Shown: in pieces, positions 7,166 to 33,910 of the stretch
Layout of the letters: every line of letters starts with the position of its first letter
How positions within the stretch are numbered: position 1 is the first letter of the stretch
DNA from: Dehalococcoidia bacterium
GTDB taxonomy: Bacteria > Chloroflexota > Dehalococcoidia > Lucifugimonadales > CAUZJF01
Direction: 5' to 3'
Assembly (NCBI GenBank): GCA_965247255.1
Contig: CBDFGS010000009.1
Location: forward strand, 416,964 to 480,963
Length of the DNA stretch: 64,000 bases
Notes under the pieces: model-generated
The model's database searches: none
Seen by the model: only the letters and a program-made list of their open reading frames with translations
Told to the model about the DNA's origin: nothing
Position numbers and translations under genes: made by a program

Positions 7166-7185
7166 CAGGGGTGCGCCGGCCGGCG

Positions 7186-13744: not shown

Positions 13745-13780
13745 CTACACACACCGCACTTCATTCCTCCTCCTCAGAAG

Positions 13781-14736: not shown

Positions 14737-14790
14737 TTGACAAACACTACATCTGGTGCTAAAGTCTACGGGCTCTACAACATCTTGCGG
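14737..14790 (+). promoter_or_regulatory. promoter with two NrdR-box-like palindromes upstream of nrdR
   Basis: TTGACA (14737-14742), 17 nt, TAAAGT (14760-14765). Box 1 is ACACTACATCTGGTGC (14744-14759) and box 2 is CTACAACATCTTGCGG (14775-14790), with centres 31 bp apart. Compared with the remembered NrdR-box consensus acaCwAtATaTwGtgt they match at 12/16 and 10/16 positions by my count. Confidence 0.5.
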
Positions 14791-14830
14791 CAGGAGAAGC
14801 CGTTGGGGGCCCCGCTCCACCGCCGCCCAC

Positions 14831-15385: not shown

Positions 15386-15612
15386 GCAACTAGGGCTTCC
15401 AGAGCAACAGTAGACCACATGTTCTTCTCCATGGTACCGTTACGGAGACCCGCGCTAGCCGGAATGAGCAAGCCCGCTCAAGTCCTCATAGTGCTGATCG
15501 CAATGGCCTTCATCGTAATCGCCGTCGTTGGGGCCATTATCCAGGTCTTGGCCTGATAGAACGCCGACGAAGTCGCTTGGCATCGGAAAATACTGGATCC
15601 AGGAGTCGAGTC

Positions 15613-18693: not shown

Positions 18694-19488
18694 CTACGAG
18701 TAGTCCTTCAACACACGCACTGGCAGGAGTTCGCTTTTACCCTTAAGCTCCAAGGTCCTCTTTTCCAGGTCCGAGCTAATCCCGGTACCTTCGAAGGCGT
18801 CTTCGCTGATCAAGATCTCGCCGGGCCCCGCCGCGGAGGAGAGGCGAGCCGCCACGTTTGGAGCGTCGCCCAGGACGGTGATGTCCGTCGCGCCGTCTGC
18901 CGACCCCACCGTTCCGACGAACGCCACCCCGGAGTGGATACCCACGCCCAGCGGGACCCAGGGTCCGTCGGGCGCGTCGTGACCGGTCGAGCGGAGCAGC
19001 TTTTGCGCGCCGCGTATCGCCGCGTTCTCGTGGTCATGCCCTACGTAGAACGGAAGGTACATTCCGACGACCTGGTCCCCCGCAAGTCTATCGACCCACG
19101 CGCGGCTCCGGAGAAGCACCTTGCCGGCCACTCCAAAGAAGCGGCTTATCAACGCGCTGAACTCAGAAGGAGTCATGCCTTCTGCGAGGCTGGTGGAGCC
19201 TCGCACGTCGGCGAACAACATGGAGAGCTCGACCTCGGCGCCACCGATGAACTGCGTCGCTGTCACCTGACACGCGTGGCAGAACTCCGAGGTCAGCCGC
19301 GACGGCCCTCTGCCAACGACCCGCATCACCGGGGCGATTGGGCCGTCGAAGGGCGAGCTACAGAATTTGCAGCGGGCGACCGAGGGCACACGCCCAAGGA
19401 CGTACCGCATCTGACGCAAGGGCGGCTTCGGGCCTTCCCCGGTCAACAATCCCCGCCACCAGTTCTCCACCGCTGTCTTGTCAGCCAC
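18694..19488 (-). CDS. class III adenylate/guanylate cyclase with an N-terminal Cys4 zinc-ribbon-like segment
   Basis: 264 aa: CKFC...CHAC, then MLFADVRGSTSLAE...GDQVVGMY...GIHSGVAFVGTVG...LGDAPNVAARL. Confidence 0.85.
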   Translation of the reverse strand: MADKTAVENWWRGLLTGEGPKPPLRQMRYVLGRVPSVARCKFCSSPFDGPIAPVMRVVGRGPSRLTSEFCHACQVTATQFIGGAEVELSMLFADVRGSTSLAEGMTPSEFSALISRFFGVAGKVLLRSRAWVDRLAGDQVVGMYLPFYVGHDHENAAIRGAQKLLRSTGHDAPDGPWVPLGVGIHSGVAFVGTVGSADGATDITVLGDAPNVAARLSSAAGPGEILISEDAFEGTGISSDLEKRTLELKGKSELLPVRVLKDYS

Positions 19489-19957: not shown

Positions 19958-22684
19958 CTAGCCGTCTTGGCTACGATGCCAGCTTTGTGGCTCACCGAAA
20001 GCCTCGTGAAGCCGATCACGGAGCGGCGCCCACTCTTCGCCGAGGAGCAGTGCGCCGTAGCGCCGGTGAAGCCCTTGCTCCCAGCACTTGGCGAAGATGA
20101 ATTCGCGGAAGAACATGTCGTCCTTCGGGAAGGACCGGCGCGCGCTCTGGAGCCGGACCGCGGCGGGACCGGGTGAGCGGGCGAGGAGGTAGCCGGCCCC
20201 CTGGCCCAGCAAGGTCGGCACAAGGTGGAAGTTCCTATACTGGTACGCCTCCGGGATTAGCCCCCACCGATCGAGCAGGTCCGCCGCCACCGTTAGGTCT
20301 TCCATGACACCGTTAACGAGCGCGTCGATCACTCCTTCGATCTGAGCTGCTTCAGAGGCGTCCAGCGTCCCAGCCCGGCGCCGCTCGTCCTCGAACACGT
20401 GGAGGAGCCTGGCCATCAGTATCAGGCCCTGTCCACGGTAGTAGCGAGGGAGTGGGTGGGTCGGCGAGTGGGAGGCGGCCTCGCTGTAGAGGTCCCAAGC
20501 GCTAGTAGGGTCGCACAGACAGAGATGGGCATCGCCTTCCTGGCAGAGGGACCGGACCAGGCCGCTGCCGAGTTCCCTTCTACTCAGCTTCGCCGCACCC
20601 TGGGCATACTTCAGCGCGTCATGCCACTCACCCAGCGAGAACGAGCAGTCCGCAGCGAGCCGCCGCAGGTACACGTCGGTACGGCCGCTCTCCTTCTGCA
20701 GCGCCTTCCGGACCCTCCGAAGAGCGGCGTCCCAGTCCCCTCGCTCCTGCGCCATCATGCTCTGGGTGACGTCGTCCACGACTGTGGCCACCTCAAAGGC
20801 CCAGCGCTCGACCTCGTCTGCCAGGGCGTCTAGAGCCTTCTCTTTGGCGCCATCGGATATGCGTTGCGCCGGCACGTCCAGCACCCAGGCGACAAGCTTC
20901 ACAGGGGCGTTGCTCGGCGAGATGCGGTTAATCGTCGTGGGGAAGACGTTCCGGATTCGGTCGAGCTCGTATTTCGAGACCAGCTTGCCGAGGGCGATAA
21001 CGACTCCGACCCCCGGCAGCTCCCCGATGAAGCTCTCTGCGCCGAACACGGCGGGGGCCTCGGGCCAGTGCGACCGCACAAAGGAGCGCCATTCCAGGTG
21101 CTCCATGGTCTCGACCAGCCAGCGGCCGAGCCGATCGGAGACCACCGGGTCGAACTCCTCCGGGTCCGGGCGATGCGACGACAACAAGAGGAACGGTAGT
21201 CTCAGGTCTCGCTGCAAGTGTTCGCTCTCGCGTATCTCTACGGCCTTTCGATTGAGCAGCTCCAGCAGCGCATCTTTGAACTGCTCACGCTTGAGAATCG
21301 TGGAGGTGGCGAGATTCGCAGACACGTTGGCGGAGTGGACGGCGGCGCGCTGTCGTTCGATAATCTCGCCCACGATACGACTGAAGACGGTCAATACGCG
21401 GGTCTCGACCTCCAGCCGAGGCGCTTCTAGCCGAGGCATCAGCATATAGAGGGATCCTATCGAGCTGCCGGACCCGGCCATGATCGGCAAGGCCATCGCG
21501 GAAAAGCCCCCGCGGCCCTTGTCATCTGCTGCCTTGTTCCGGAGATAACGCGTCTCCTGCTCAACCGATTTGATGACCATAGTCCACGGATATTCGACGG
21601 TGGGTACCACCAATGGTACAGCCACGGCGCTGGCGTAGCCGGAGAGCATCTCCGCACTCTTGGCTGGTTCCCACAAAGAGGGCTCCCACGGCTTGGAGGC
21701 TGAGCTCGCGAGCGCCCGTGCCCCTTCCGATTCCTGTGTCATCTCGATGACCTCGCACAGGGCGCCCGAATATGTGGCGTCCAGGAACTGAGTCACGAGC
21801 CATAGCTGAAGATCGTCAGCCGACCCCGCCTCCGGTTCGATGGCGATATCGAACCTGGACGACGATTGGGCCTGGTGAAACTCCTCGAATTCGATGAAGA
21901 CGATATCGAGAATCCTGCCGACGAATTCGAGCGTCTTATCGTCCGAGGAGACGGACGATGGCCTCATGGTCCCAATCAGTAGCTCGTAGAGTTCTCGATC
22001 TGTTGCGACCTGCAGCTCGACAAAGTGGCGGGCGGTCACCTCTCCCCTCGTGGGAAGCTGGTCCTTACCGAGAAACAGGACTTCGAGCGACGGCGCGATA
22101 ACTGAGCACGATGGCGACGGCCGTTCCAGGATGGTGCGGAACACGTACTCATGACTGACGGAGCGGGGCTTGCCCGACGCAGGTTCGCCGGCCTGACGGC
22201 CGTGTCGTTTTACGACTAGGAGGCAGTTAGCGTAGTGTTCCTGGTTGTGGAGGAGCGCCGAGAGGGCGCTACCGATAAGGCGCGGCGGAACGCGTCTGCG
22301 CAGCCGGTCCAGCGCGGTAACTATGAGCCGGTTCCAAACTCCGCCGTACCGCGGCTCGCCGCTTTTCGAGACGTCCTTCCCCCCCACGACGGCGTCTACG
22401 GCCTCGCGGAACTTCATGCCCCTGGAGCGCAGGAACAACACAGTCAGGGCGTCTGCGGTGGCGGGCAGGCTGAACAACTCTTCGTCGCCGATGCCACGGG
22501 TCCGCAATCGGCCGATAAGCCAACGGCGCCCCTGCTCTCCCGCCATCCGCAGCACCTCGCCGGTGGTGAAGGAGAGTTGGCCGGGGTGGTGACTGTCGAG
22601 CCAATCGAAGGCTTCCTCGCGGATCTGAGGCGCATGATCGAGGTCTGGGGGGACTCCCGGGTTGAAGAGGGCTGTTTTCTGCAT
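19958..22684 (-). CDS. large multidomain regulator-like protein (MerR-like HTH, GAF-like domain, degenerate cyclase-like segment, TPR-like C-terminus); function unknown
   Basis: 908-aa uninterrupted ORF. The N-terminus (TTGEVLRMAG...LTVLFLRSRGMKFREAVDAV) resembles a MerR HTH. The middle (GFSAMALPIMAGSGSSIGSLYMLMP...VFSRIVGEIIERQR) resembles GAF. The C-terminus is helical-repeat-like. Domain calls are by eye only. Confidence 0.5.
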   Translation of the reverse strand: MQKTALFNPGVPPDLDHAPQIREEAFDWLDSHHPGQLSFTTGEVLRMAGEQGRRWLIGRLRTRGIGDEELFSLPATADALTVLFLRSRGMKFREAVDAVVGGKDVSKSGEPRYGGVWNRLIVTALDRLRRRVPPRLIGSALSALLHNQEHYANCLLVVKRHGRQAGEPASGKPRSVSHEYVFRTILERPSPSCSVIAPSLEVLFLGKDQLPTRGEVTARHFVELQVATDRELYELLIGTMRPSSVSSDDKTLEFVGRILDIVFIEFEEFHQAQSSSRFDIAIEPEAGSADDLQLWLVTQFLDATYSGALCEVIEMTQESEGARALASSASKPWEPSLWEPAKSAEMLSGYASAVAVPLVVPTVEYPWTMVIKSVEQETRYLRNKAADDKGRGGFSAMALPIMAGSGSSIGSLYMLMPRLEAPRLEVETRVLTVFSRIVGEIIERQRAAVHSANVSANLATSTILKREQFKDALLELLNRKAVEIRESEHLQRDLRLPFLLLSSHRPDPEEFDPVVSDRLGRWLVETMEHLEWRSFVRSHWPEAPAVFGAESFIGELPGVGVVIALGKLVSKYELDRIRNVFPTTINRISPSNAPVKLVAWVLDVPAQRISDGAKEKALDALADEVERWAFEVATVVDDVTQSMMAQERGDWDAALRRVRKALQKESGRTDVYLRRLAADCSFSLGEWHDALKYAQGAAKLSRRELGSGLVRSLCQEGDAHLCLCDPTSAWDLYSEAASHSPTHPLPRYYRGQGLILMARLLHVFEDERRRAGTLDASEAAQIEGVIDALVNGVMEDLTVAADLLDRWGLIPEAYQYRNFHLVPTLLGQGAGYLLARSPGPAAVRLQSARRSFPKDDMFFREFIFAKCWEQGLHRRYGALLLGEEWAPLRDRLHEAFGEPQSWHRSQDG

Positions 22685-22902: not shown

Positions 22903-23172
22903 GATAGGGCAGGTTTAAAACCTGCCCCTACATCGCAGCTGCAACACCTCCATGGTTGCCGGAGATCGCCCGCGGGTTCAGGACTTACGAACAGCCGGAG
23001 GGCGAGATGCTAGGCGACGCTGTCGCGGTGGTAAGGGCGATAGGGCAGGTTTAAAACCTGACCCTACATCGCAGCTGCAACACTCCATAGTTGCCCGAGA
23101 TCGTGTCTGGGTTCAAGACTTCCGATTAATCGGAGGCCGAGATGCTAGGTGACGCTGTCGCTGCTGCCGGCG
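22903..23172. repeat. tandem duplication (period about 135-136 bp) containing a GGGCAGGTTTAAAACCTGCCC hairpin and the ribosome-binding site plus first codons of the downstream gene
   Basis: Copy 1 is 22903-23038 and copy 2 is 23039 to about 23172. GAGATGCTAGG(C/T)GACGCTGTCGC occurs at 23004 and 23139, and only the second ATG (23142) opens a long ORF. Confidence 0.85.
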
Positions 23173-23786
23173 TGGTGGTGATCGCACTCGCTGGGCTGGT
23201 CTTGTCGAACCTGGCGTACGACCTGGGGGTGCCAAGGTCGGTCTCCCGCTTTGTCGCACCCGGACTCGCGGGCGCAGCGTTCCTCGTCGCAGTGCTGTGG
23301 TTGGACCCCTGGACAGCCGTCACCGTATCGGCGGTGCTAACGGTGTTCGTTTTCACACTTCGAGTGGGATTTCGTAGGGGGCTGCGCGGCGTTGCCGGCA
23401 ACCTTCCAACCCAGGACTGGGCGGAGGTGACCTTCGCCGTAGCGGGCACGGCCAGTCTGGCAATCGGATGGGGCTTGCTGGGCGACAGGTGGCTCGCGTT
23501 CTTGCCCATCTCGTTCATGGCCTGGGGGGACAGCGCTGCCGGGCTCACCAGGGCCACGCTCTGGCGCAACGACGTCGCGAGCATATGGCCGTCCATCGTA
23601 ATGCTGGGCGTTTGCCTAGCCACGGCGCTGCTGTTTGAGCCGTACTGGACCGGCGCCCTTGGCGCTTTCGCAGCTACCGCGGCGGAGCGTCGCCGGCCGA
23701 TGGCCCTCCCTATTTGGGACGACAACCTTCACGTGGTTGCAATATCGCTGGCTGCCATGGGCGTCGTGGCCACAATCTGGGGCTGA
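23142..23786 (+). CDS. polytopic membrane protein, possibly dolichol/phytol-kinase-like (CTP-dependent cytidylyltransferase family)
   Basis: 214 aa with about 6 TM helices. The WGDSAAGL motif resembles the conserved GD..A..G loop of the CDS/dolichol kinase family. Weak call. Confidence 0.4.
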   Translation: MLGDAVAAAGVVVIALAGLVLSNLAYDLGVPRSVSRFVAPGLAGAAFLVAVLWLDPWTAVTVSAVLTVFVFTLRVGFRRGLRGVAGNLPTQDWAEVTFAVAGTASLAIGWGLLGDRWLAFLPISFMAWGDSAAGLTRATLWRNDVASIWPSIVMLGVCLATALLFEPYWTGALGAFAATAAERRRPMALPIWDDNLHVVAISLAAMGVVATIWG

Positions 23787-24033
23787 GTCGCCGGGCGGAC
23801 TACCTGGTCGGCCGTACCTCCAATCGCACACCAGCTGCCGGCCTACCACGCCGACTCGAAGCGCGTAGCAGATGCATCAAGTATAATGCTCATTAATGCT
23901 ACGGCGCAGTAAAAGCGATGACGTTTCTCCGCCGTACCCCCTTGTGCGTCGCATATACGTAGCGCATCATGTCGCCAGGATGTCTAGGGCAATGAACACA
24001 GAGGGGACACAGAAAGCCAAGGAGATGGCCGTG

Positions 24034-24351
24034 ATGACGCGGAGAGAGCGGCGGGCGCGCCGGCAGCGACGGTTCGTCACGGTCAGGGAGGCCCAACTGG
24101 CGGCGCGACTGGCGCGAATGGGCTACAAGGTCTCTAACGAGAGCGGGGCCCTGAGGGTGCCGAGCAAGATGCGGACCTGGTACCAGGGCAATCGCAAGAG
24201 CGCCCACCAGCCACCCCCCGGCCAAGCGTGGGAGAGATCAGGCCCCGCCTACGTAACCGCAGCCAACGGGACCGGACTCGCGGAGCCGATCGTGCTACAT
24301 CGATGGCGGAGGCTGACGGCAGAATCAACGACGAACGACACAACCGAATAA
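24034..24351 (+). CDS. small basic protein, unknown function
   Basis: 105 aa (MTRRERRARRQRRFVTVREAQLAARLARMGYKV...). AAGGAG lies 9 nt upstream and a strong terminator follows. The longer track ORF from 23896 lacks an RBS. Confidence 0.4.
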   Translation: MTRRERRARRQRRFVTVREAQLAARLARMGYKVSNESGALRVPSKMRTWYQGNRKSAHQPPPGQAWERSGPAYVTAANGTGLAEPIVLHRWRRLTAESTTNDTTE

Positions 24352-24383
24352 ACCGGCGGCGACCCGGCCAGAACAGGGTTAGG

Positions 24384-24420
24384 AAAGACCACAGCCAGCA
24401 GCTGTGGTCTTTGCTTTTCC
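24384..24420 (+). terminator. intrinsic terminator (copy 1 of the duplicated module)
   Basis: GACCACAGC-CAGCA-GCTGTGGTC followed by TTTGCTTTTCC. Confidence 0.75.
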
Positions 24421-24525
24421 GAAGCTCTGACACGTCAAGAGGAAAGGGGTGGCAGCCATGGAGTAGGCACACCGGGTGAAGGCGACGGCGCAGCAACTTG
24501 CCTGACCAAAAAGGAGGTGAACGCG

Positions 24526-24834
24526 ATGATGCAGCAGGACTACCGGATGATCGAGGTTGAGCGGAGCCTACCCCGAGCTTACGGAGCGCAGACCGGCATC
24601 CCTCCGGCAGCCAGGGATATCAATCAGCGCGTTCGGCAGACCGAAAGGTACTACGAGCAACCTTACGCCTCCCGTGGCCCCGCGGAGGATGGTTGGGAGC
24701 TCTCCCCACCCGCATCCTATCGCAGCAACGCCGGCGTGGACCGAGATACAGGGCTGGGTGAGGTAGCCGCGGTAGGGGGCCTCGATTTCATCCTGCAGGT
24801 GGCATCGGCCCTCTTCGGGGGCGGTGACGAGTGA
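24526..24834 (+). CDS. small protein carrying the MMQQDYRM N-terminal module, unknown function
   Basis: 102 aa. AAAGGAGG lies 8 nt upstream of ATGATG. The N-terminal 36 aa are paralogous to the start of the 1483-aa protein. The C-terminus is hydrophobic (GLGEVAAVGGLDFILQVASALFGGG). Confidence 0.6.
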   Translation: MMQQDYRMIEVERSLPRAYGAQTGIPPAARDINQRVRQTERYYEQPYASRGPAEDGWELSPPASYRSNAGVDRDTGLGEVAAVGGLDFILQVASALFGGGDE

Positions 24835-24978
24835 CCAGGCGTAGACGAGCGACAGGGCTCCGGGCTATCACGCCGGCCATGTCGCTCGCGGGCGGGAAGA
24901 GGGTGATGTCCATGCGGTAAAGGTGGCCGACATCGGGACGTTGAATATCCAGACCAAAGACTAAGGAGGCGAACAGCT

Positions 24979-25770
24979 ATGAACAATACGCAAACTCTAA
25001 CCGCAGGCGACAGGGCGCCAGTCGATGTCAAGGCACCGGTCGGCGGGACGGGTAAAAAGAATCTCCTTGATCCCTTCGGCGCGGCTCAGGGCAGGCCTAG
25101 CCTTCTCCCGCGCCGGAGAGAAGGGACAAGAGTGGAGATGACCCCCAGCGAGCTGGTCATGGTGCAGATGATGCCATGGAGCAACCTGGCGCTGGAAGGC
25201 GTTCAGTCGCGAACGGTCGAGAGTCCACCCTACGAGGTTGTCACGGCGGCGCTGGGCGCGGCAATCGTGGCGAACGAGGAAGCTGGAGCCGTCAAGCTGG
25301 AGCTGGTGGAGGAGAAGCACTTCTTCGGATGGTTCACGAGCACCATCCTCAGAGCTACTCCAACGGGCAAGCTTTTCCGGTGGCCTACCGGCAGCCTGGA
25401 GCACAGCCTGGGTGAGCACATCACCGTAAAGGCCAAAAGAGTATCCGACGTCGTCTACGACTGGATCGGTGAGGACAAGGCCTACGCTCAGCGGTACGTA
25501 ACGAACCGAGCGATGGGGCGCATGGTCGCCAGGAAGATGGTAGCTCGGAAGACGGTGCGCATCGAGAAGAGGGCGTTGGGGCTCTTCAGCTACACGTCGA
25601 AGTCGACGTACTACGTGCTTCCGAAGCGGAGCTACGCCCTCGCAGATTCGCCTTCGGCTCTCCCTGCGCATGCGTATCGGTACGTCGGCTTGCGCGGGGA
25701 TGATCAGCTAGAGGTCGAAATCCGAAGCGGCGTGAGCCGGCGGCAAGAGGCATCTGATTGCTACGACTAG
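24979..25770 (+). CDS. hypothetical protein
   Basis: 263 aa. TAAGGAGG lies 9 nt upstream within a third partial copy of the CAGACCAAA..AGGAGGCGAAC leader. No motif I recognise. Confidence 0.6.
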   Translation: MNNTQTLTAGDRAPVDVKAPVGGTGKKNLLDPFGAAQGRPSLLPRRREGTRVEMTPSELVMVQMMPWSNLALEGVQSRTVESPPYEVVTAALGAAIVANEEAGAVKLELVEEKHFFGWFTSTILRATPTGKLFRWPTGSLEHSLGEHITVKAKRVSDVVYDWIGEDKAYAQRYVTNRAMGRMVARKMVARKTVRIEKRALGLFSYTSKSTYYVLPKRSYALADSPSALPAHAYRYVGLRGDDQLEVEIRSGVSRRQEASDCYD

Positions 25771-25855
25771 CGAAGGTCAGGGATGGTCCGAAATGTCGTT
25801 CCGAACGAAGTGAAGAATCTGGGGCCGGGGGGCCGCACCCTACGGCACCGGGAGG

Positions 25856-25890
25856 AAAGACCACAGCCAACAGCTGTGGTTTTTGCTTTC
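25856..25890 (+). terminator. intrinsic terminator (copy 2 of the duplicated module)
   Basis: GACCACAGC-CAACA-GCTGTGGTT followed by TTTTGCTTTC. Confidence 0.75.
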
Positions 25891-25994
25891 CCACACCTCG
25901 GACACTTTAAGACGGAGGTGGCAGCTATGGAGTAGACGCACCGAATCAAGGTGGCGGTGAAGCAACTCGCCAGACCAAAAAGGAGGCGAACGCG

Positions 25995-28900
25995 ATGATG
26001 CAGCAGGACTACCGGATGAACGAGATCGGGCGGAGCCTACCCCGAGCCTATGAGAGGCAGACCGGCAAGCCTCGGGCTGCCAAGGATATCAATCAGCACG
26101 CCAACGACCCAAACTCGGCTATTAGTCCAGGGATTGCGGCATTCGCGACGGAATCGGATCAGCTGCCCGCCTGGGTTAGGTGGCTGACATTCGCGGTCCT
26201 TGGTGTCTTAATTGTGGGACTCTCAGTAACCGCCCAGGTGCGCAACGACTACATAGTCGCCTGGAGCCTTTCCCAAGGGATTATAGGAGAGGCGTCGACT
26301 CAGGGCCTGGGCAGCTTCCTGGCGAACTTCGCGACGGCGGGTGTCATCCTGGGCCTGGCGGTCGCCTCCCTGAGCATTCCCCCTGTAGCGCGCGCAGCGG
26401 GCTTCATGCTGCGTTCAGGACGGGTCGGAGTCAGCGGACTAGGCCTTGGAGCGTACGCCATCGCTCAGGCCATCGTCGCGCTGCTCGCACGCGTTCGGCT
26501 GGGCGTCGCCGCCGCAGTTCAGGCCATCGCGGCAGCGATGGCCCGTATCTGGCTCGTCGTCGAAGGAGTCGCTCGAGCCGTCGCGCCGGTGCTGGCCCGC
26601 GTTCGGTTGGGTGTCGCTGGGGTCATCGGCCACCTGTGGACTGGGACCGCGATCCTCCTCGGATATGTCGGTCTGGCTATTCGGGGCGTAGTCCGCGGGG
26701 TCGGCCTGGTGGTGTACTACTCGCTGGGCGGCCTCGTTATCGCGCTCTACTACTTGGTGGATGCCGTGCTTCGCTATGTGTGGCCAGTGGTGTCTAGCGC
26801 CGCGGTCCGCCTCTGGCTGGGCATCACCGTCACCGTGGGCGCCGTCTCCGCAATCATGGGTTACGGATGGCAGCGAGTCTCGGCGGCGTTGCACCAACTG
26901 CTGTTAGGGATCACGGTCATCGCCGGGGCTGTCGGCAGCGCTGTTGGCGGGACGTGGGCGATCATCGCGGTCGCGGCTGTTAATGCCAGCGCGCGGGCAA
27001 GCACAGCGGTGCGATACGTTTGGGCGCTCGTCTCCACGACTACCGCTTTGTTGGCAAGCGTCGCCGCGGCCTATTTGACTCGGCGCGGAGGTGAACTCAG
27101 CCGCAATCTGCGGTTGAGCAGTACCACCGTCGCTCGGGGCGGCCACCATGTGAGGGGTTACTCATGGTCTCGCACCGCGGCAGTGGCGGTCTTCCTGTGG
27201 CTAGGCGTCACGACTATCGCGCAGGCCGTTGGCCACCTGCTCGTGTACGCGGCGCATCGCGCTGTGGCCTTGACGGTCTTCCTCTGGCTGGGCGTCGCCA
27301 CTATCGGTCTGGGCTTTGGCGCGGTGCTCGGACACGGGTGGCACGCCGCCGGCGCACTCGCATCCTACGTGGGGCGCGCCATCTCCACCACCGCGCGGGC
27401 CGTTAACGCGGTGTTCCTGCCGGTGCGGCGGACTGTCGCGGCAATCCTACGCTACTTCGGGCGCGGTATCGCCATGATAGCTCGGGCCATTGGTGTGGTA
27501 CTCAGGGCCGCGTCGCAGAGTGGAGCTGCAGGCCTAGGCTACCTGGACCGCGGCGTGGCCGTCACAGGTCGGGCCGGCGGCACGGTGTTCTTGGCTGTGC
27601 TGCGGGCTGTGGCAGCGGTCCTGGGGTACTTCGGGCGTGGCATCGCCATCATGGCGCGGGCCGCTGGCGTGGCACTCGGCTACGTGCTGGGGATCGTGGC
27701 AGTGGTCGCGGGGTACTTTGGGCGCGGCATCGCCATGATGGCCCGGGCCGCAGGCGTGGTGCTCGCCTCGGTGCTGGGGGTCGTGGCAACGGCCGCGGGG
27801 TACTTTGGGCGCGGCATCGCCATGATGGCCAGGGCCGCAGGCGTGGTGCTCGCCTCGGTGCTGGGGGTCGTGGCAACGGTCGCGGGGTACTTTGGGCGAG
27901 GCATCGCCGTCATCGCTAGAGCTGTCGGCGCCATCCTGGGATACGCGTCGGGGTATGGCTCGTCCGTCCTGCGGCACCTGGCACTTGGAATGGCTACGCT
28001 CGGCCATCACTCTTACGTTGCTGGCGGCGTGGCGAAGAGGCAGCTTACCATCTTGCTGCGGTTGGTCTGGCTGGGCGTCTCGACCGCCGCGAGACTCTTG
28101 TGGCTCGGCGTCGCAACCTTTGCCAGCCGGGTGAGACCGCTCCTCTACTACTTGTTCATGGGCCTCTTCGCGTTCTTCGCGATAGCCGGGTGGGCGCTGT
28201 GGGCGGGGGTTTTACGGCCCCTGTGGCTGGGGGTCTCCGCGACCGCCGGTTTCCTTTGGCTGGGGGTGGCCACTATTGCGGGCCGGATATGGTTAGGAGC
28301 GTCCAAGTCCGCGTACTTCGCATGGCTGGGAATCACGACGACGGTGCTCGCTTTCGGCTGGGTGGTGTCGCGCGGCGCGACGGCCGCCGCACGCGGGCTC
28401 TGGAGAAGCGCGGCCTTTGCAGCGGGAACCTTGGGGACCGGCATATCTGCGACGCCGGACGCTGTCGGAATGGCGCTTTGGGTGGTCAAGCACCGGAAAG
28501 GGGTGTCTACATTGTCTGAATTCAACCTGACACGGGAACGAGCACTCTCCGTAATCGCGACGCTATGGGTGTTCGGTATCGGCGGTCTGATAGCTGTGGC
28601 GCTGCTGTGGCCCGGACCGCCGGAGCCGACCGTGGTCGTCGATCACTGGGTCACCGGCCACCTGTACTTCGGCGCAAATCTGCCGGATATAGCTGAGCGG
28701 TACAACGCGGCCGGCCACAGGACCGAGGCCGGCAAGCGCATCGTGGTCCAGATCCACAATGCCCCGTCATCCGAGGGAGCGCGGGCTCTGCTCGGCAGGG
28801 TTACCGGCGGGGGGCCGGCCATGGTAAACGCGGGGGCCGGGCTGCAAGAGCTGCCGGACCCCACCATCGTCACGCCTTCAGGCGCCCACTGGCTGGTAAG

Positions 28901-30446
28901 CGTCAATCACGGCGCGGGCCGCAAGGTCGTTGACCCAGACAACGCTCGGAGCCTCGCACTGGCCTACATTGGGATAATAACCTTCCGCGACATCGCGGAG
29001 TGCCTGGGCTGGCCGCAGAAGGAGATCGGCTACGCGGACATCATCGCACTGCGAAACGACCCGAGAGGGTGGAAGAGCTACTCGTGCGCCAAGCCTTCGT
29101 GGGGGACGAGGCCTCTGGTCGCCTTCACCGATCCCAGGACTTCGAGCACCGGCCGGAGCGTGCTGATCGCGCTGTACTCGATCGCCGCCGGCAAACTCCC
29201 GGGGCAGCTCACGCTGGATGACATAAAGGACCCGGCCGTCGTGAGCTACGTCGAGGGGTTCCAGCAACTCATAGACCACTACTTCATCGGCACGACCGTC
29301 ATGAACACGAAGATCTACAAGGGGGCGCGCTTCGGGCAGTTCTTCATCATGCCGGAGGACAACCTGATCCACCTCTACGAAGGCACGGCGCGGGCTAGGT
29401 TCGGGACGAAGACGCACTCGGCCCCGCCCATCAAGGACCCGATGGTCATGATCTATCCGAAAGAGGGCTCGATGGCGCGGACCAACTGCGCCTGCATCGT
29501 GGATGCCGCGTGGGTGACAGCCGAGCACGTCGAGGCCGCCGAGAAGTGGACCGACTTCCTGCTCGAAGACGAGCAACAGCGACTATTGATGGCGGCCGGC
29601 TTCAGGCCGACCGCGGGTCTCACCGTCCATGACCCGAGCAGCAAGATCACGCCACGGTTCGGACTGAACCCGGCGACACCGGCCAAGCCCCTCAACCCCG
29701 CGATGATCGCTCCTGAGGTCGCAGCCGCCATCGATGCGTCGTGGGAGGAGGTGAAGAGGCCGGGGATCATGACGTTTGTCCTCGACACGTCCGGCTCGAT
29801 GGTCGGCACCAAACTGAGGCAGGCCAAGGAGGGGCTGAACCTCGCCCTGGACAGCATGGCCAGCAACAACCAGGTTGGCTTCCTCTCATTCGGCAACACC
29901 GTCCACACCCAGTCCAGCATCCCTGTTGCCCCGCTGGCGGATGTGGGCCCGGCAATCGTGGAGGCCGTCGAGGTAATCCGGGCCCGCGGGGAGACCGCGC
30001 TCTACGACGCAGTGAAAAGGGGCATCGAGATGACGGACGCAGCCGAAGGAGACCCCGACGCCATCCGTGGCGTGGTGGTCCTCACCGACGGCCTGGCGAA
30101 CCGCGGGGCGACGCGGCTGGACGACCTCATCAAGATGTTCGATGGAGAGGCCCCCATCCGCGAGTTCGGAGGCTTCGAAGGCGATTCAGTCGCCGTTCGT
30201 AACGATGGCAGAAGCGTTCCGTTGGAAGTCACCGTGGATGGGAAGATAGTCGACAACGAGCAGTTCCGGGGCGACGGGCTGGCCATCCATACCGAGCACC
30301 GCATCCAGGTGTTCTTCATCGGCATTGGTGAGGACCTGAAGCTGACCGTTGGCCGGCTGCTCGCCGAAGCGACCTTCGCGGAGTTTCAGGGGGTAACCGA
30401 AGAGGATCTGGCCAGCTTGCTCCAGGAACTCAGCGGGTATTTCTAG
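25995..30446 (+). CDS. giant membrane protein: MMQQDYRM N-terminal module, an approximately 800-aa repetitive hydrophobic region, a periplasmic-binding-protein-like domain and a C-terminal vWA domain
   Basis: 1483-aa uninterrupted ORF with AAAAAGGAGG upstream. The hydrophobic Ala/Gly/Val/Leu/Arg-rich repeats span roughly 26150-28620. The SBP-like segment (FTDPRTSSTGRSVLIALYS...IMPEDNLIHLYEG...YPKEGSMARTNCACIVDAAW) spans roughly 28620-29740. The vWA domain with MIDAS motif DTSGSM and VVLTDGLAN spans roughly 29760-30443. Confidence 0.85.
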   Translation: MMQQDYRMNEIGRSLPRAYERQTGKPRAAKDINQHANDPNSAISPGIAAFATESDQLPAWVRWLTFAVLGVLIVGLSVTAQVRNDYIVAWSLSQGIIGEASTQGLGSFLANFATAGVILGLAVASLSIPPVARAAGFMLRSGRVGVSGLGLGAYAIAQAIVALLARVRLGVAAAVQAIAAAMARIWLVVEGVARAVAPVLARVRLGVAGVIGHLWTGTAILLGYVGLAIRGVVRGVGLVVYYSLGGLVIALYYLVDAVLRYVWPVVSSAAVRLWLGITVTVGAVSAIMGYGWQRVSAALHQLLLGITVIAGAVGSAVGGTWAIIAVAAVNASARASTAVRYVWALVSTTTALLASVAAAYLTRRGGELSRNLRLSSTTVARGGHHVRGYSWSRTAAVAVFLWLGVTTIAQAVGHLLVYAAHRAVALTVFLWLGVATIGLGFGAVLGHGWHAAGALASYVGRAISTTARAVNAVFLPVRRTVAAILRYFGRGIAMIARAIGVVLRAASQSGAAGLGYLDRGVAVTGRAGGTVFLAVLRAVAAVLGYFGRGIAIMARAAGVALGYVLGIVAVVAGYFGRGIAMMARAAGVVLASVLGVVATAAGYFGRGIAMMARAAGVVLASVLGVVATVAGYFGRGIAVIARAVGAILGYASGYGSSVLRHLALGMATLGHHSYVAGGVAKRQLTILLRLVWLGVSTAARLLWLGVATFASRVRPLLYYLFMGLFAFFAIAGWALWAGVLRPLWLGVSATAGFLWLGVATIAGRIWLGASKSAYFAWLGITTTVLAFGWVVSRGATAAARGLWRSAAFAAGTLGTGISATPDAVGMALWVVKHRKGVSTLSEFNLTRERALSVIATLWVFGIGGLIAVALLWPGPPEPTVVVDHWVTGHLYFGANLPDIAERYNAAGHRTEAGKRIVVQIHNAPSSEGARALLGRVTGGGPAMVNAGAGLQELPDPTIVTPSGAHWLVSVNHGAGRKVVDPDNARSLALAYIGIITFRDIAECLGWPQKEIGYADIIALRNDPRGWKSYSCAKPSWGTRPLVAFTDPRTSSTGRSVLIALYSIAAGKLPGQLTLDDIKDPAVVSYVEGFQQLIDHYFIGTTVMNTKIYKGARFGQFFIMPEDNLIHLYEGTARARFGTKTHSAPPIKDPMVMIYPKEGSMARTNCACIVDAAWVTAEHVEAAEKWTDFLLEDEQQRLLMAAGFRPTAGLTVHDPSSKITPRFGLNPATPAKPLNPAMIAPEVAAAIDASWEEVKRPGIMTFVLDTSGSMVGTKLRQAKEGLNLALDSMASNNQVGFLSFGNTVHTQSSIPVAPLADVGPAIVEAVEVIRARGETALYDAVKRGIEMTDAAEGDPDAIRGVVVLTDGLANRGATRLDDLIKMFDGEAPIREFGGFEGDSVAVRNDGRSVPLEVTVDGKIVDNEQFRGDGLAIHTEHRIQVFFIGIGEDLKLTVGRLLAEATFAEFQGVTEEDLASLLQELSGYF
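27449..27970 (+). repeat. six tandem 87-bp (29-aa) in-frame repeats inside the giant CDS
   Basis: Unit starts at 27449, 27536, 27623, 27710, 27797 and 27884. Units 27710-27796 and 27797-27883 differ at only 2 positions by my count. The peptide unit is GYFGRGIAMMARAAGVVLASVLGVVATAA. Confidence 0.9.
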
Positions 30447-30580
30447 ATAGAAACGGGAGAGTACTTCGCGTCTAGGGAGTCCAGACCAGGTGATCGTTGA
30501 CGCACCCGGTAGAAAGTGACCTTATACCCTTGAGGCGATGAAGAAGATCTCTAGAATGCGAACCAGGTAGGAGTTTAGCC

Positions 30581-31261
30581 ATGACAACTCGTGCTGCACT
30601 ACTGCATCCCCTCGGCGTGACGCTCTTTGTCGGCAGCTTGCTCGCGATCGCGGCGTTGAAACTACTACCGGGGCTGGAGCGCTGGGCGGCCCAGGCTCCC
30701 TGGGTCTTGGTACTCGGGTTCATAGCATACGTTGCGTCTGTGATTGCCGTGCGTATACTGCCACCGGAGGTACGCCGCGATCTTTCCGCGCCGGAGCTCC
30801 GCAAGCTCGACTCGATTCGACGGGCTATGGAAACGAAACTCAAGCAACGAGAAGCCGCGGATGGCGGCTCATCGGAGCTCACCGGCGTCGTCCTGGAGGC
30901 GATCGTGCACCTGGACGTCCAGGTCACACCGGCGCTCCAGCAACTCCTGGCGCGGCAAAAGAACCTCAGCGAGCTGCTGGCCAAATACGACCGGGGGGAG
31001 CTGCCGCTGCCTGAGCCGGCGGTCCTGGAGCGTCTTCGGCGTATTAGCTCGCGTCAACGCACGGCCATCGAAGAATGCGTGCAGCAGGCCTCCAACGCCG
31101 CCGGAACTCTCGAGGCGCTCCTCCAGGAGAGCGACGACGAGGTCATAGCATCCGAAGCCCGAGCCTGGGCCGACGATCTGCTTACGTTGTACGACTCGGT
31201 GGGTGACGTGTTGCGGGGTGAGGAAGGGCAAGGCGTGCTCGAAGACAATATGAGTAGGTGA
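30581..31261 (+). CDS. membrane-anchored coiled-coil protein (2 N-terminal TM helices), possibly XpaC/TelA-like
   Basis: 226 aa with TAGGAG upstream. Two TM helices are followed by a long helical domain (LRKLDSIRRAMETKLKQREA...LQQLLARQKNLSELLAKYD...). The family assignment is tentative. Confidence 0.6.
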   Translation: MTTRAALLHPLGVTLFVGSLLAIAALKLLPGLERWAAQAPWVLVLGFIAYVASVIAVRILPPEVRRDLSAPELRKLDSIRRAMETKLKQREAADGGSSELTGVVLEAIVHLDVQVTPALQQLLARQKNLSELLAKYDRGELPLPEPAVLERLRRISSRQRTAIEECVQQASNAAGTLEALLQESDDEVIASEARAWADDLLTLYDSVGDVLRGEEGQGVLEDNMSR

Positions 31262-31269
31262 GCTAATCT

Positions 31270-31304
31270 GGGCGGGGCAAGAGTCCATGTCTCTTGTCCC
31301 GCCC
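31270..31304 (+). terminator. GC-rich hairpin after the vWA operon (no clear U-tract)
   Basis: GGGCGGGGCAAGAG-TCCATGT-CTCTTGTCCCGCCC. Confidence 0.4.
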
Positions 31305-31325
31305 GCGGGCATGCGAGCTTCAGGT

Positions 31326-31347
31326 GGGCGCGGCAAGCAGCGCCCCC
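31326..31347. repeat. REP hairpin family GCGCGGCAAGCAGCGCC
   Basis: GGGCGCGGCAAGCAGCGCCCCC. Confidence 0.75.
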
Positions 31348-31421
31348 ACTGGTTGTTTTTCGTGGGCAACGCACCCCGTCTTAACCTCGTCTTTCCTCGA
31401 TGCGGTAGGTATAATCGAAGC

Positions 31422-32432
31422 ATGAGCAAGAGCGAGAGGCCCCTGGTCGCCATCACCATGGGCGACCCTGCCGGGGTAGGGGCTGAGGTCACGGTAAAGG
31501 CGCTTGACGACGCCGGCGTGTACGAGAGATGCCGCCCGTTCGTCGTCGGCAACATCGACGCGATACGGGACGCCCAGCGCTTCGTTGGGAACGGCGGCGC
31601 TGCTCAAGGCGTCCGCTCGCTAGAGCATATAGCCGGGCATGCCGGCACCGTCGAGGTGTTCGACCCGGGCAACCTCGACTACGGCGACATAACCCTTGGG
31701 CGTTTATCGGCTGCGGCCGGCAAGGCCTCCGTCGAGTGGATCATCCAGGCGGGCGAGATGGCGACCAGCGGAGGCGTCCAGGCGATCGTGACCGCGCCTA
31801 TTAACAAGGAGGCGTGCAGTCTGGCGGGCTACCAGGACATCGGCCACATGGAGCTGCTCCAGCGGCAGACCGGCGCGAAGGAAGTCGCCACGATGCTCAT
31901 CGCCGAGGGTCTCCGCGTCGTGCACCTGACCACCCACAAGTCAATGCGCGTCGCCTGCGACTTCGTGACCAAAGCCAACGTGCTCTCTGCGATATTGCTC
32001 ACATCGAGGTATTTTCAGCAGTGGGGTTTCGAGGCGCCTCGCATAGGAGTCGCCGCGCTGAACCCGCATGCCAGCGATGGGGGGCTCATCGGGGACGAGG
32101 AGGAGCGGGAGATCGCACCGGCTATAGCCGAGGCGCGCGCCCAGGACGTCGAGGCGATCGGACCAGTGCCTGCCGATACGATATTCAACCAGGCGATCGA
32201 CGGTATGTACGACGCCGTGCTGGCCATGTACCACGACCAGGGGCACATACCCATCAAGGTGCACAACTGGGCCAAGAGTATTACGCTCAATATGGGGCTG
32301 CCCTTCATCCGTACCTCGGTCGACCACGGTACCGCCTTCGACATCGCCGGCAAGGGCATAGCCGATCACGAGAGCATGGTGGAGGCGATCCGAGTGGCCG
32401 TGGACCTGGTCAGCGAAGGCAAGCTGCGATAA
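31422..32432 (+). CDS. pdxA: 4-hydroxythreonine-4-phosphate dehydrogenase family (PdxA/PdxA2)
   Basis: 336 aa: ITMGDPAGVGAEV...VTAPINKEA...LNPHASDGG...DHGTAFDIAGKG. I start at the ATG at 31422, because the track ORF from 31287 runs through a REP hairpin. Confidence 0.85.
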   Translation: MSKSERPLVAITMGDPAGVGAEVTVKALDDAGVYERCRPFVVGNIDAIRDAQRFVGNGGAAQGVRSLEHIAGHAGTVEVFDPGNLDYGDITLGRLSAAAGKASVEWIIQAGEMATSGGVQAIVTAPINKEACSLAGYQDIGHMELLQRQTGAKEVATMLIAEGLRVVHLTTHKSMRVACDFVTKANVLSAILLTSRYFQQWGFEAPRIGVAALNPHASDGGLIGDEEEREIAPAIAEARAQDVEAIGPVPADTIFNQAIDGMYDAVLAMYHDQGHIPIKVHNWAKSITLNMGLPFIRTSVDHGTAFDIAGKGIADHESMVEAIRVAVDLVSEGKLR

Positions 32433-33238
32433 TGCGGACCTCATTCATCGGCGGCGGCGTGATGGCCGAGGCGATCCTCGGAGGCGTCCTGGATGCGGAG
32501 ATCGCGTCGCCCTCCGACGTAACGGTCGGCGAGCCCGTCGAGGCGCGGCGTGCTCACCTTGCTCGCAAGTACGGCGTGGAGGCGGTGTCCGACAATCTGG
32601 CTGCTCTAAGCGGCGCAGGGATCGTCGTGCTCGCGGTCAAGCCTCAGAACCTCGACGAGGTCATGCGCACATTAAAGGGGAACCTGGAACCGGCCCAGGT
32701 GGCCATCTCGATCGTCGCCGGCGCCAAGCTGAAAACGCTGACCGAGGGGCTGGGCCATCCGATGGTTGTCAGGGTGATGCCCAACACCCCCGCCCAGATA
32801 CGGGCTGGGATGACAGTGTGGACCGCATCACCGGAGGTCTCGGAGGATAAGCTAGCCGCGACGGGAGAGATCCTCCGCACCCTGGGCGCGGAGGTATTCG
32901 TCTCGGACGAGAAGCTGATGGACATGGCCACCGCCCTCAGCGCCAGCGGCCCCGCGTACGTCTTCCTGTTCATCGAGGCGCTGATCGACTCAGGCGTCTA
33001 CATGGGGATGCCACGCGACATGGCAAGAGAGTTAGTGCTCGAGACGGTAATCGGTAGTGCCAGGTTCGCGAAGGAGTCCGGCGGGCATCCCGGCGAGCTG
33101 AAGGACATGGTGTCGTCGCCGGGCGGGGGCACGGTCGAAGCGCTCAAGGTCTTCGAGCAGCGCGCCTTCCACGGCGCGGTTATAGATGCGGTGTACGCCG
33201 CTTACAAGAAGTACCAGGCGCTGGGGAGACAGGGTTGA
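32432..33238 (+). CDS. proC: pyrroline-5-carboxylate reductase
   Basis: 268 aa: FIGGGVMAEAIL...LAVKPQ...VRVMPNTPA...SASGPAYVF...SPGGGT. TAATG overlap with pdxA. The first 206 aa of the 474-aa track ORF are an out-of-frame shadow of pdxA. Confidence 0.9.
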   Translation: MRTSFIGGGVMAEAILGGVLDAEIASPSDVTVGEPVEARRAHLARKYGVEAVSDNLAALSGAGIVVLAVKPQNLDEVMRTLKGNLEPAQVAISIVAGAKLKTLTEGLGHPMVVRVMPNTPAQIRAGMTVWTASPEVSEDKLAATGEILRTLGAEVFVSDEKLMDMATALSASGPAYVFLFIEALIDSGVYMGMPRDMARELVLETVIGSARFAKESGGHPGELKDMVSSPGGGTVEALKVFEQRAFHGAVIDAVYAAYKKYQALGRQG

Positions 33239-33489
33239 CTGGCTTCCTCATTCTTTTTGTCAACTTGCTGTTCCAGGCACTTTGGCTGGCCATCCTTGGT
33301 CGTGTGCTGATGTCTTGGATCTCGCCCGGTCGCGAGAACCCCCTGACCCTGTTACTGTTTCAGATCACCGAGCCGATACTTGGTCCTTTGCGCCGGGTCA
33401 TACCGCCAATGGGCACGTTCGACTTGAGTCCCATGGTCGCTCTGTTCGGGATTCAATTCATTCGAGAGATTCTGGTCAAATCCCTTTAG
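33235..33489 (+). CDS. YggT family membrane protein
   Basis: 84 aa: ILGRVLMSWISP...NPLTLLLFQITEPILGPLRRVIPPMG.FDLSPMV. Confidence 0.85.
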   Translation: MTGFLILFVNLLFQALWLAILGRVLMSWISPGRENPLTLLLFQITEPILGPLRRVIPPMGTFDLSPMVALFGIQFIREILVKSL

Positions 33490-33730
33490 CGCCAAGTCTG
33501 TCGGCGACATCCCGGACCCGAAGACCCTTTATCTCCACTACCTTATCCCTGCTGCGCTGGCCGCGCACTATCTCGATGCTGCCTTTGGGCACGCCGAGCC
33601 GGTCGGCCAGCAACCCGATCGCCGCCTTGTTGGCCTTGCCGCGTTCCGGCGGAGCCGTCACGTGCACCCTGAGCCGTAGACCGTCGATTAGATCGATCGT
33701 GTTGCTGCCGGCCCTTGGGTGGACTCTCAT
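33476..33730 (-). CDS. DUF167 (YggU) family protein
   Basis: 84 aa: RVHVTAPPERGKANKAAIGLLADRLGVPKGSIEIVRGQRSRDKVVEI. Confidence 0.8.
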   Translation of the reverse strand: MRVHPRAGSNTIDLIDGLRLRVHVTAPPERGKANKAAIGLLADRLGVPKGSIEIVRGQRSRDKVVEIKGLRVRDVADRLGAKGI

Positions 33731-33841
33731 CTCGATGCGGGCGACTTTGGCGCTAATTCTCCAGACCTCCTGGCTGGGATAATGGCGGGCGCAGCTATCA
33801 ACGTGAGCTACCGCGTGCCGTTTTCTGGCACCTGGAAGAAT

Positions 33842-33882
33842 ACCTCACCCCCGGCCCCTCTCGGCATTTGCGGAGAGGGGGG
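33842..33882. repeat. REP family CCTCACCCCCGGCCCCTCTC-N-GAGAGGGG
   Basis: Same family as 9597-9637. Confidence 0.8.
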
Positions 33883-33910
33883 AGGGATGGTGAAAACACT
33901 AGGGGCACTC

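Follow-up and report, generated by a model that had tools for sequence, protein, structure and literature searches.

The locus described here raises the question of what a bacterial protein of 1483 residues, which joins about 800 residues of hydrophobic repeats to a solute-binding-protein-like (SBP-like) domain and a VWA domain, does in the cell envelope, and with which partners. Its gene lies in a stretch of 64,000 nucleotides (the window) from a Dehalococcoidia bacterium (assembly GCA_965247255.1, contig CBDFGS010000009.1, positions 416,964 to 480,963), where it is one of five genes on the same strand; the others encode a small basic protein and proteins of 102, 263 and 226 residues. An earlier reading of the window from its letters (the sequence-only reading) had proposed that the five genes form an uncharacterised membrane-associated module, and the gene neighbourhood found in relatives bears this out, with a membership different from the one proposed. 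We give about an even chance to the interpretation that the region is a conserved module for sensing and maintaining the membrane in Dehalococcoidia-type Chloroflexota, found also in a few Acidimicrobiia. The core of the neighbourhood consists of the giant transmembrane (TM)-SBP-VWA protein, the small basic protein and a 908-residue protein with tetratricopeptide repeats (TPRs).

The giant protein and its family

The makeup assigned to the giant protein in the sequence-only reading was correct in that the repetitive hydrophobic N-terminal region, the SBP-like and VWA domains and an intact metal-ion-dependent adhesion site (MIDAS) are all present. Pfam places VWA_2 at residues 1260-1366 (E 8e-10), and the MIDAS motif (DTSGS...T...D) is complete and invariant in an alignment of 21 homologues, which have a mean column identity of 69%. 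The columns of D414, S416, S418, T514, D515 and T195-R204 (numbered on the 633-residue query used in the homologue search) are invariant or nearly so, and the C-terminal part of the VWA domain carries a conserved motif, EFQGV.E.DLA..L.E.SGYF. The query comprised the C-terminal 633 residues; a word-indexed search with the whole protein returned itself and one relative because the repetitive N-terminal region swamped the candidate list. The C-terminal query gave 377 matches among the scored candidates, and a unit of ~630 residues, comprising TM helix, SBP-like domain and VWA domain, was collinear in more than 100 proteins with 52-79% identity over 95-100% of the query. Members of this family have ~615-640 residues with a single TM helix followed by the two domains, and their annotations are generic ('VWA domain-containing protein', 'extracellular solute-binding protein' or 'Ca-activated chloride channel family protein'). 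For many of them, precomputed Pfam matches to SBP families exist.

Plain members of the family open with a signal anchor led by K/R residues, and others carry additional modules on the N-terminal side, namely a Ser/Thr kinase, a LuxR-type helix-turn-helix (HTH), SPFH/Band-7 or hydrophobic repeats. As signal-anchor starts and N-terminal fusions of cytoplasmic type occur in the same family, the N-terminus is placed in the cytoplasm and the SBP-VWA part is taken as an ectodomain. In the window's protein, residues 849-875 form the last hydrophobic segment ahead of the soluble domains, with the conserved juxtamembrane motif HRKGV..S.FNLTRER and basic residues before it and an acidic PPEPTV stretch after it. 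These charges, together with the signal anchors of the short members and the N-terminal fusions, argue for an N-in/C-out orientation. The family would thus combine an SBP-VWA ectodomain with exchangeable modules on the inner side, an architecture that fits a sensor with exchangeable cytoplasmic outputs.

Gene neighbourhood in related genomes

A set of 34 related loci was drawn from two sources, contigs that encode close homologues and a scan in which each species was represented by one genome. The species scan gave 28 loci, nearly all from metagenome-assembled genomes of Dehalococcoidia/Chloroflexota, with three from Acidimicrobiia and one from a genome labelled deltaproteobacterium. The most constant neighbour was the 908-residue protein, whose homologues (57-71% identity) were encoded in the same divergent position in 16 of the 34 loci; the basic protein was matched in 16 as well (32-64% identity by tblastn/phmmer). 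TelA was encoded in 18 loci and its helical partner with two TM segments (2-TM) in 20, whereas PspA was found in three (L002, L005, L015), which are the loci most like the window in organisation, and on a metagenome contig (L042). The 226-residue protein and its 416-residue relatives form a family represented in six loci, while homologues of the 263-residue protein were present in two, those of a 214-residue membrane protein encoded just upstream of the five genes in three to four, and small proteins with an A.DI(N/D) motif or glycine zippers in two. TelA and PspA both reach the respective Pfam thresholds (PF05816, E 9e-35; PF04012, E 2e-22), and the cassette of TelA with its 2-TM partner was never found in one locus with the cassette of PspA and the 416-residue protein. 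In the closest relative, L002, the ectodomain is 79% identical and the gene order is basic, small, PspA, giant, 416. From gene order and content, the window's locus appears to be a locally rearranged copy of this recurrent neighbourhood, of the PspA/416 type.

The comparison changes the outline of the cluster in several respects. The exact set of five genes occurs nowhere else, so the five are not conserved as a set; the basic and giant genes do occur together broadly (16 loci), and the remaining types are accessory (six loci for the 226-residue family and two each for the 263- and 102-residue types). The limits previously set at 23896-31304 should be moved upstream to 23142 and probably to 19958. 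Of the two housekeeping blocks thought to enclose the cluster, the downstream one stands (31287-35533: pdxA, proC, yggT and a glycosyltransferase of the PMT family that has zinc ribbons). The upstream one does not, because the 908- and 214-residue proteins belong to the conserved neighbourhood; housekeeping genes are found farther out on that side (10402-18051: mraW-ftsA-ftsZ-nrdR-nrd, the last a class II-like ribonucleotide reductase). Its position between this cell-division and nucleotide block and the downstream genes places the cluster within the usual division-cluster region. A link to TelA, suspected in the sequence-only reading, holds in the relatives, where TelA with its 2-TM partner is encoded beside the SBP-VWA gene in 18-20 of 34 loci, but not in the window.

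Insertion sequence (IS) or transposase insertions were seen in or near the cluster in L001, L003, L004 and L005, including one inside the basic gene of L005 and one inside the giant gene of L004. In the low-coverage long-read contigs of the same four loci the giant genes are split by frameshifts. The neighbourhood seems to be prone to disruption, or those assemblies are rich in errors.

The hydrophobic repeat region

The N-terminal ~800 residues of the giant protein consist to 58% of A, V, G and L and contain 63 R+K against 12 D+E. A 29-residue period runs through residues 48-880, and the youngest copies are visible in the DNA as an 87-nucleotide tandem unit (3.6-6 copies) at 27363-27971. Cationic hydrophobic N-terminal extensions of 446-951 residues, in frame with the family domains, were found in at least 12 independently assembled loci, and comparable extensions occur in the database proteins P0002, P0007, P0011, P0026, P0032 and P0055; in P0055 the repeat unit has 11 residues (LRYLWLGVSTV). 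The possibility that the giant open reading frame (ORF) is an artefact of assembly or repeat collapse was considered and rejected, because the extension recurs in these at least 12 independent assemblies, the 4.45-kb ORF is intact and its GC content at third codon positions (GC3) is coding-like. In a helical-wheel test, basic residues fell on one helical face in several segments, significantly so in some. As near-identical units of 29 residues cannot each cross the membrane twice, in-plane or re-entrant helices are the arrangement that we favour for the repeats.

Accessory and neighbouring proteins

Three of the five products had been listed as belonging to no family, and each now has relatives or a likeness: the 263-residue protein has 126 homologues, the 226-residue protein has a family and the 102-residue protein resembles glycine-zipper proteins. 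A word-indexed search with the 263-residue protein returned only the protein itself, and its status as an orphan was dropped when a full HMMER search gave the 126 relatives (E<=1e-3), which are ~220-260 residues long. PF05719 (GPP34) was detected below threshold in six of 36 aligned relatives (best E 2.8e-6; 17.8-25.7 bits against a threshold of 29.1), in collinear matches such as residues 42-199 onto profile positions 22-173; the window's protein itself had no PF05719 match in Pfam. Its AlphaFold model is confident (predicted local distance difference test (pLDDT) 81, predicted template-modelling score (pTM) 0.74). A Foldseek search of this model against the PDB gave a best E of 0.22 with template-modelling scores of at most 0.17, and the family profile had no match among PDB sequences. 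The genes of the two nearest homologues belong to this neighbourhood too, and after each comes a gene for a homologue of the 214-residue membrane protein of the window; the 263-residue protein is therefore a recurrent accessory component rather than the product of a stray gene. Its gene occupies the slot in which relatives have PspA.

Relatives of the 226-residue protein (41-59% identity) are encoded directly 3' of the giant gene in L002, L005, L006, L015, L022 and L027. The family normally has 365-394 residues, and the window's protein is its only short member, without ~170 C-terminal residues that all other complete members possess. A weak similarity links its TM hairpin to the hairpin of the TelA partner (phmmer E 2e-14 to 7e-6; hhalign P 7e-4). 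In hhalign comparisons the family showed no relation to the TelA and PspA families, and its likeness to the TelA-partner family was confined to the TM hairpin. The long relatives (L002 10847-12031, L005 12305-13400, L006, L015 and L022) carry a C-terminal segment, ...LHERYELGDPTLHIRTRHSIAESTFHRYRRDAVSAVADHL, which reads like a HTH of the sigma-region-4/LuxR type and would make them membrane-tethered regulators. Pfam found no significant HTH on the 416-residue proteins, the best being HTH_31 (E 0.085), which fell in the wrong region.

In L033 and L034 a homologue of the 214-residue membrane protein is encoded immediately 3' of the GPP34-like gene, and in L013 the gene for the homologue lies between the basic gene and the giant one (E 1e-65 to 1e-86). 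The protein had no Pfam, NCBIfam or PDB match; its invariant motifs (GD...AWGD...G..R, WPS, AER and DDN) are acidic and polar, which suggests an enzyme or a transporter. A CTP-dependent lipid kinase similar to dolichol/phytol kinases was considered on account of the GD...G motifs and rejected, as Pfam offered no support at E<=1. In L034, the interval 4842-7515 between the basic and GPP34-like genes encodes a ThiF/E1-like protein (PF00899), a 90-residue ORF of beta-grasp size and other small ORFs, which could be a ubiquitin-like conjugation set.

The 908-residue protein has C-terminal TPRs with weak Pfam matches and no recognisable domain outside them, and its profile had no match among PDB sequences. 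Next after its gene, and on the same strand, lies a gene for a protein with an adenylate/guanylate cyclase domain (18694-19488, minus strand); a cyclase-domain gene is also found nearby in L033.

Locus layout and transcription signals

All five ORFs are present at the positions described for them (Table 1), and their codon-position GC is coding-like throughout. For the 263-residue ORF the values are 0.61/0.47/0.75, versus 0.76/0.48/0.61 for a long ORF on the opposite strand, which favours the 263-residue frame.

Table 1. Genes, domains and nucleic acid features of the locus (window coordinates)
Feature	Position	Strand	Description
908-residue TPR gene	19958..22684	-	divergent neighbour
214-residue membrane protein gene	23142..23786	+	polytopic; accessory neighbourhood member
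Small basic gene	ORF 23896-24351; likely product 24031..24351	+	conserved head gene of the cluster
28-nucleotide non-coding element	24355..24382	+	GGCGGCGACCCGGCCAGAACAGGGTTAG; starts 4 nucleotides past the basic gene stop, just before T1
Direct-repeat copy 1	24381..24631	+	terminator, 5' untranslated region (UTR), ribosome-binding site, codons 1-36 of the 102-residue gene
T1 hairpin	24384..24420 (stem 24384-24412)	+	intrinsic-terminator-like; 12-bp stem, U-rich tail UUUGCUUUU
102-residue gene	24526..24834	+	N-terminal A.DI(N/D) motif; degenerate Gly/Ala-rich hydrophobic tail
263-residue gene	24979..25770	+	soluble alpha/beta protein, distantly similar to GPP34/GOLPH3
Direct-repeat copy 2	25853..26100	+	T2, 5' UTR, ribosome-binding site, first 36 codons of the giant gene
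T2 hairpin	25856-25892 (stem 25856-25884)	+	U-rich tail; after the 263-residue gene
Giant gene (1483 residues)	25995..30446	+	repeats, TM anchor, SBP-like and VWA domains
Copied N-terminal peptide	residues 1-36 of the giant		
Cationic hydrophobic repeat region	26136..28538 (residues ~48-848)	+	
TM anchor	28539..28619 (residues 849-875)	+	
SBP-like ectodomain	28620..29714 (residues ~876-1240)	+	invariant motif TDP.TSSTGRS
VWA domain	29766..30446 (residues ~1258-1483)	+	MIDAS DTSGS at 29784-29798
226-residue gene	30581..31261	+	N-terminal TM hairpin and cytoplasmic helical domain
GC-rich hairpin	31269..31305	+	15 bp, after the 226-residue gene; no U tail

Terminators or a hairpin had been noted after the basic, 263- and 226-residue genes, and folding recovered strong hairpins at all three sites: T1 (-26.8 kcal/mol, z -5.4), T2 (-25.0 kcal/mol, z -5.1) and the hairpin at 31269-31305 (-31.5 kcal/mol, z -4.3). 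A simple terminator scan called none of them because its T-run rule is strict. A scan for sigma-70-like promoters found no site in either copy of the duplicated leader described below and a single promoter-like match upstream of the 226-residue gene. We infer the transcription-unit structure from the hairpins alone.

The duplicated leader

The N-terminal peptide said to be shared by the 102-residue and giant proteins was found as described, with 26 of the first 34 residues identical and a consensus matching the earlier one exactly. The shared peptide spans 34-36 residues and lies inside a longer direct repeat in the DNA (~250 nucleotides, 81-88% identity), each copy of which comprises a terminator hairpin, ~110 nucleotides of 5' UTR, an AAGGAGG ribosome-binding site and ~36 codons; copy 2 lacks the 28-nucleotide element. 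Divergence between the copies is alike in the UTR and in the coding part, except that the ribosome-binding site and the first eight codons are near-invariant.

The idea that the paralogous leaders reflect a conserved design was not upheld, as the duplication is lineage-specific and absent from all relatives. None of the related giant proteins starts with MMQQDYRM; that of L002 has a zinc-ribbon-like start and ~250 further residues before homology resumes near residue 50 of the window's protein, and that of L005 has yet another N-terminus. The A.DI(N/D) motif is a property of the small-protein family, with positional counterparts of the 102-residue protein in L002 (127 residues) and L004 (98 residues) showing the same motif and clearer glycine zippers; by overall similarity, tblastn found no matches to the 102-residue protein in related loci. 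Because this motif belongs to the small proteins and the giant N-termini differ in L002 and L005, the giant's copy of the leader is the derived one, and duplication of the terminator, UTR and 36 codons has replaced the ancestral, cytoplasmic N-terminus of the giant protein.

The basic protein and its downstream RNA element

The basic protein most likely starts at GTG 24028 or ATG 24031, just after an AAGGAG sequence, to give 105-106 residues beginning with MTRRERRARRQRRF. From this start GC3 is 0.79, compared with 0.62 in the upstream part of the longer ORF. A family search gave a sub-threshold match to RcnB and nothing else. The N-terminal motif MTRRERRARRQRRF is rich in arginine and resembles the RNA-binding motifs of lambdoid N-type proteins.

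Downstream of the gene lies the 28-nucleotide element, which has a single match in the window (0 expected by chance) and is found 3' of the basic gene in 15 of the 16 loci and in 8 of 12 metagenome contigs. Its positions include L001 7561-7588, L005 6459-6486, L009 7297-7324 and 7712-7739, L018 1506-1533 and L033 7827-7854, among others. The element, with the consensus GGCGGCGACCCGGCCA.AACAGGGTTAG across loci, is conserved far above the basic protein, and its predicted 5-bp hairpin (GACCC/GGGUU) is invariant according to RNAalifold. One-nucleotide indels just upstream exclude that it is coding in frame. The hairpin equivalent to T1 in relatives keeps its pairing through double changes at seven pairs (covariation), and the order in the loci is the 28-nucleotide element, the covarying terminator and then the ribosome-binding site of the next gene. 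With Rfam 15, tRNA alone reached its gathering score in the window; a search of 23800-26100 at E<=10 gave nothing meaningful, and no family was found for the leader or the 28-nucleotide element. Together these features suggest a candidate antitermination or attenuation switch, in which read-through of the terminator would depend on the basic protein.

A model of the module and alternative explanations

The combined results suggest a model in which the giant protein is anchored N-in and exposes the SBP-like and metal-dependent VWA domains at the outer surface of the cytoplasmic membrane, where the ectodomain would sense a ligand or a contact. In this subfamily, ~800 residues of hydrophobic helical repeats studded with arginine would lie in or on the membrane at its inner side, as a platform for peripheral membrane-stabilising proteins. 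In relatives, the platform would serve either TelA and its 2-TM helper or PspA/IM30 and the relative of the 226-residue protein, physically coupled to the sensor and perhaps induced by stress. In the window, the GPP34-like protein in the PspA slot is a possible partner, and the 226-residue partner would have lost its C-terminal domain. The 250-nucleotide duplication would have provided the 102-residue and giant units with the same translation-initiation region.

Several observations weigh against this model. Neither TelA (tblastn, phmmer) nor PspA is encoded in the 64-kb window, and with the 226-residue protein truncated as well, this copy may work differently or be decaying. IS elements and frameshifts in many related loci suggest that some copies are degenerating. 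The role in membrane sensing or stress rests on the association with TelA and PspA, whose mechanisms are only partly known. The SBP-like domain stays below Pfam thresholds (SBP_bac_6, 22.5 bits against a cut-off of 24.6, E 9e-5; SBP_bac_8, 17 bits against 27, E 5e-3), and its profile had no match among PDB sequences. The similarity to GPP34 is sub-threshold throughout, and no GOLPH3/Vps74 entry was among the matches listed by Foldseek against the PDB. As to the repeats, the AlphaFold model of residues 1-909 has a pLDDT of 57.6 and consists of long helices only; the periodicity of the arginine stripe follows in part from the 29-residue repetition itself, which makes it a weak support, and a multi-pass membrane domain is a possible alternative arrangement.

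A signal-transduction system has to be considered, in which binding of an extracellular ligand by the ectodomain leads to a transcriptional output through the 226/416-residue proteins, the basic protein and its RNA element, or both; TelA and PspA would then be regulated targets rather than physical partners. The kinase and LuxR HTH modules on the cytoplasmic side of family members, the extra ~170-residue C-terminal domain of the 416-residue relatives and the invariant element and terminator after the basic gene, suggestive of regulated read-through, are in keeping with such a role. We nevertheless consider it unlikely, as the 416-residue proteins show no significant HTH in Pfam, the window's 226-residue protein does not have the C-terminal domain at all, and 800 residues of hydrophobic repeats are hard to fit as a signalling output. 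It is distinctly improbable that the protein serves in surface adhesion or envelope anchoring, with the VWA/MIDAS domain binding a ligand on the cell wall, the S-layer or a partner cell and the repeats acting as a very large membrane anchor. Such a function would explain neither why the genes of TelA and PspA, which are cytoplasmic proteins, are so tightly and repeatedly linked to this one nor the kinase and HTH fusions, and in most members a single TM helix is enough as an anchor, even though the ectodomain probably faces outward, the closest PDB sequence matches of the VWA domain include adhesion/matrix proteins and the membrane proteins BatA/BatB, and the best partial NCBIfam match of the giant protein is a sortase-target VWA protein.

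Could the window's copy be a partly degraded remnant with little present function? The missing PspA and TelA, the one short member of the 226-residue family and the replaced N-terminus of the giant protein would all be expected of a remnant, but every ORF is intact with coding-like codon-position GC, a neutral ORF of 4.45 kb would soon gain stop codons, and the ribosome-binding site and first eight codons are nearly identical between the repeat copies; we find decay very improbable. TelA and vWA proteins reportedly occur together in Ter-dependent stress and conflict clusters, a link described by comparative genomics, and a biological-conflict (anti-phage or toxin-related) system of the Ter/TelA-vWA type would also account for the frequent IS elements in related loci. 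That explanation is the least credible of those considered here and highly improbable: PADLOC-DB models matched none of six cluster proteins (0 families), no nuclease, NTPase or toxin domain was found in the cluster proteins with Pfam and NCBIfam, TerD/TerC are absent from the cluster, and the locus is syntenic across the class amid cell-division and biosynthetic genes, unlike a mobile defence island.

Relation to known systems

The membrane sensing and maintenance module proposed here has counterparts, each of them partial, among described systems. The B. subtilis counterpart of the enterococcal xpaC-telA pair is yaaN/xpaC. One report (PMC6811118) links xpaC-telA of Enterococcus faecium to daptomycin resistance. 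In the relatives, as in these membrane-stress pairs, TelA is encoded after a protein that combines a TM hairpin at the N-terminus with a helical domain in the cytoplasm. The window's 226-residue protein, with its weakly similar hairpin, shares this architecture, whereas the window itself has no TelA. At E<=1, XpaC and other relevant Pfam models matched neither the 226-residue protein nor the 310-residue TelA partner of L004. We know of no link between the TelA/XpaC pairs of Firmicutes and a TM-SBP-VWA protein. A literature search on TelA together with vWA found nothing specific.

With the Psp/IM30/LiaH envelope stress systems, which are ESCRT-III-like, the neighbourhood shares PspA, whose gene immediately precedes the giant gene in L002, L005, L015 and L042, and these PspA loci have the window's 226/416-type gene downstream. 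It differs in that the window has no PspA and no PspB/C, LiaF/Toastrack or other described Psp partner. A large comparative study of Psp partners names neither vWA nor TelA (PMC11237479). Proteins of the BatA/BatB and TerY types are similar in bearing a MIDAS-containing VWA domain on a membrane-anchored protein, and the best matches of the VWA domain among PDB sequences include BatB and an aerotolerance-related protein (E ~5e-6). The MoxR ATPase, DUF58 and TPR partners of the Bat operon are not in the cluster, and here the VWA domain is fused to an SBP-like domain and ~800 residues of hydrophobic repeats.

GPP34/GOLPH3 proteins (PF05719) are Golgi PI4P-binding (phosphatidylinositol 4-phosphate-binding) peripheral membrane proteins in eukaryotes and have many uncharacterised bacterial homologues. 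The relatives of the 263-residue protein resemble them in size and in their collinear sub-threshold matches, whereas the confident model of the window's protein, which is itself unmatched by PF05719, matches neither the GOLPH3/Vps74 fold nor another PDB fold. Receptor kinases and membrane-tethered one-component regulators with extracytoplasmic sensor domains, such as the PknB-PASTA type, are comparable to the family members with an SBP-VWA part behind a Ser/Thr kinase or LuxR HTH and one TM helix; in place of an enzymatic or DNA-binding cytoplasmic domain, the window's giant protein has the repeat array. We rate the locus as a membrane-stress neighbourhood of the TelA/PspA type, centred on a TM-SBP-VWA protein that is itself undescribed and whose repeat domain is novel.

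Implications

Dehalococcoidia and related Chloroflexota are abundant, mostly uncultured and have unusual envelopes; to our knowledge, essentially nothing has been described of their membrane-maintenance systems. What looked like a single odd locus can now be defined as a recurrent module with a fixed core and two interchangeable cassettes, and the module yields two concrete objects for experiment, the 800-residue cationic hydrophobic repeat domain and the invariant 28-nucleotide element with its arginine-rich protein. A linked and more speculative proposal, decidedly unlikely to hold as a whole, is that the repeat array is a new type of membrane scaffold and that the basic protein and 28-nucleotide hairpin form an antitermination switch similar to N/boxB. 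The array of 29-residue units (11-residue in some relatives) may lie in-plane in the inner leaflet and may couple the outward SBP-VWA sensor to the ESCRT-III-like PspA, to TelA or to a GPP34-like lipid-binding protein; if so, it would be a transmembrane damage sensor and repair platform. The basic protein, for its part, may bind the 28-nucleotide hairpin ahead of the terminator and control read-through into the module, which, if true, would be a case of chromosomal antitermination control in Chloroflexota. The interchange of the two cassettes is comparative evidence that TelA and PspA have equivalent roles and that both work with a sensor that probably faces outward, and thus bears on the function of TelA.

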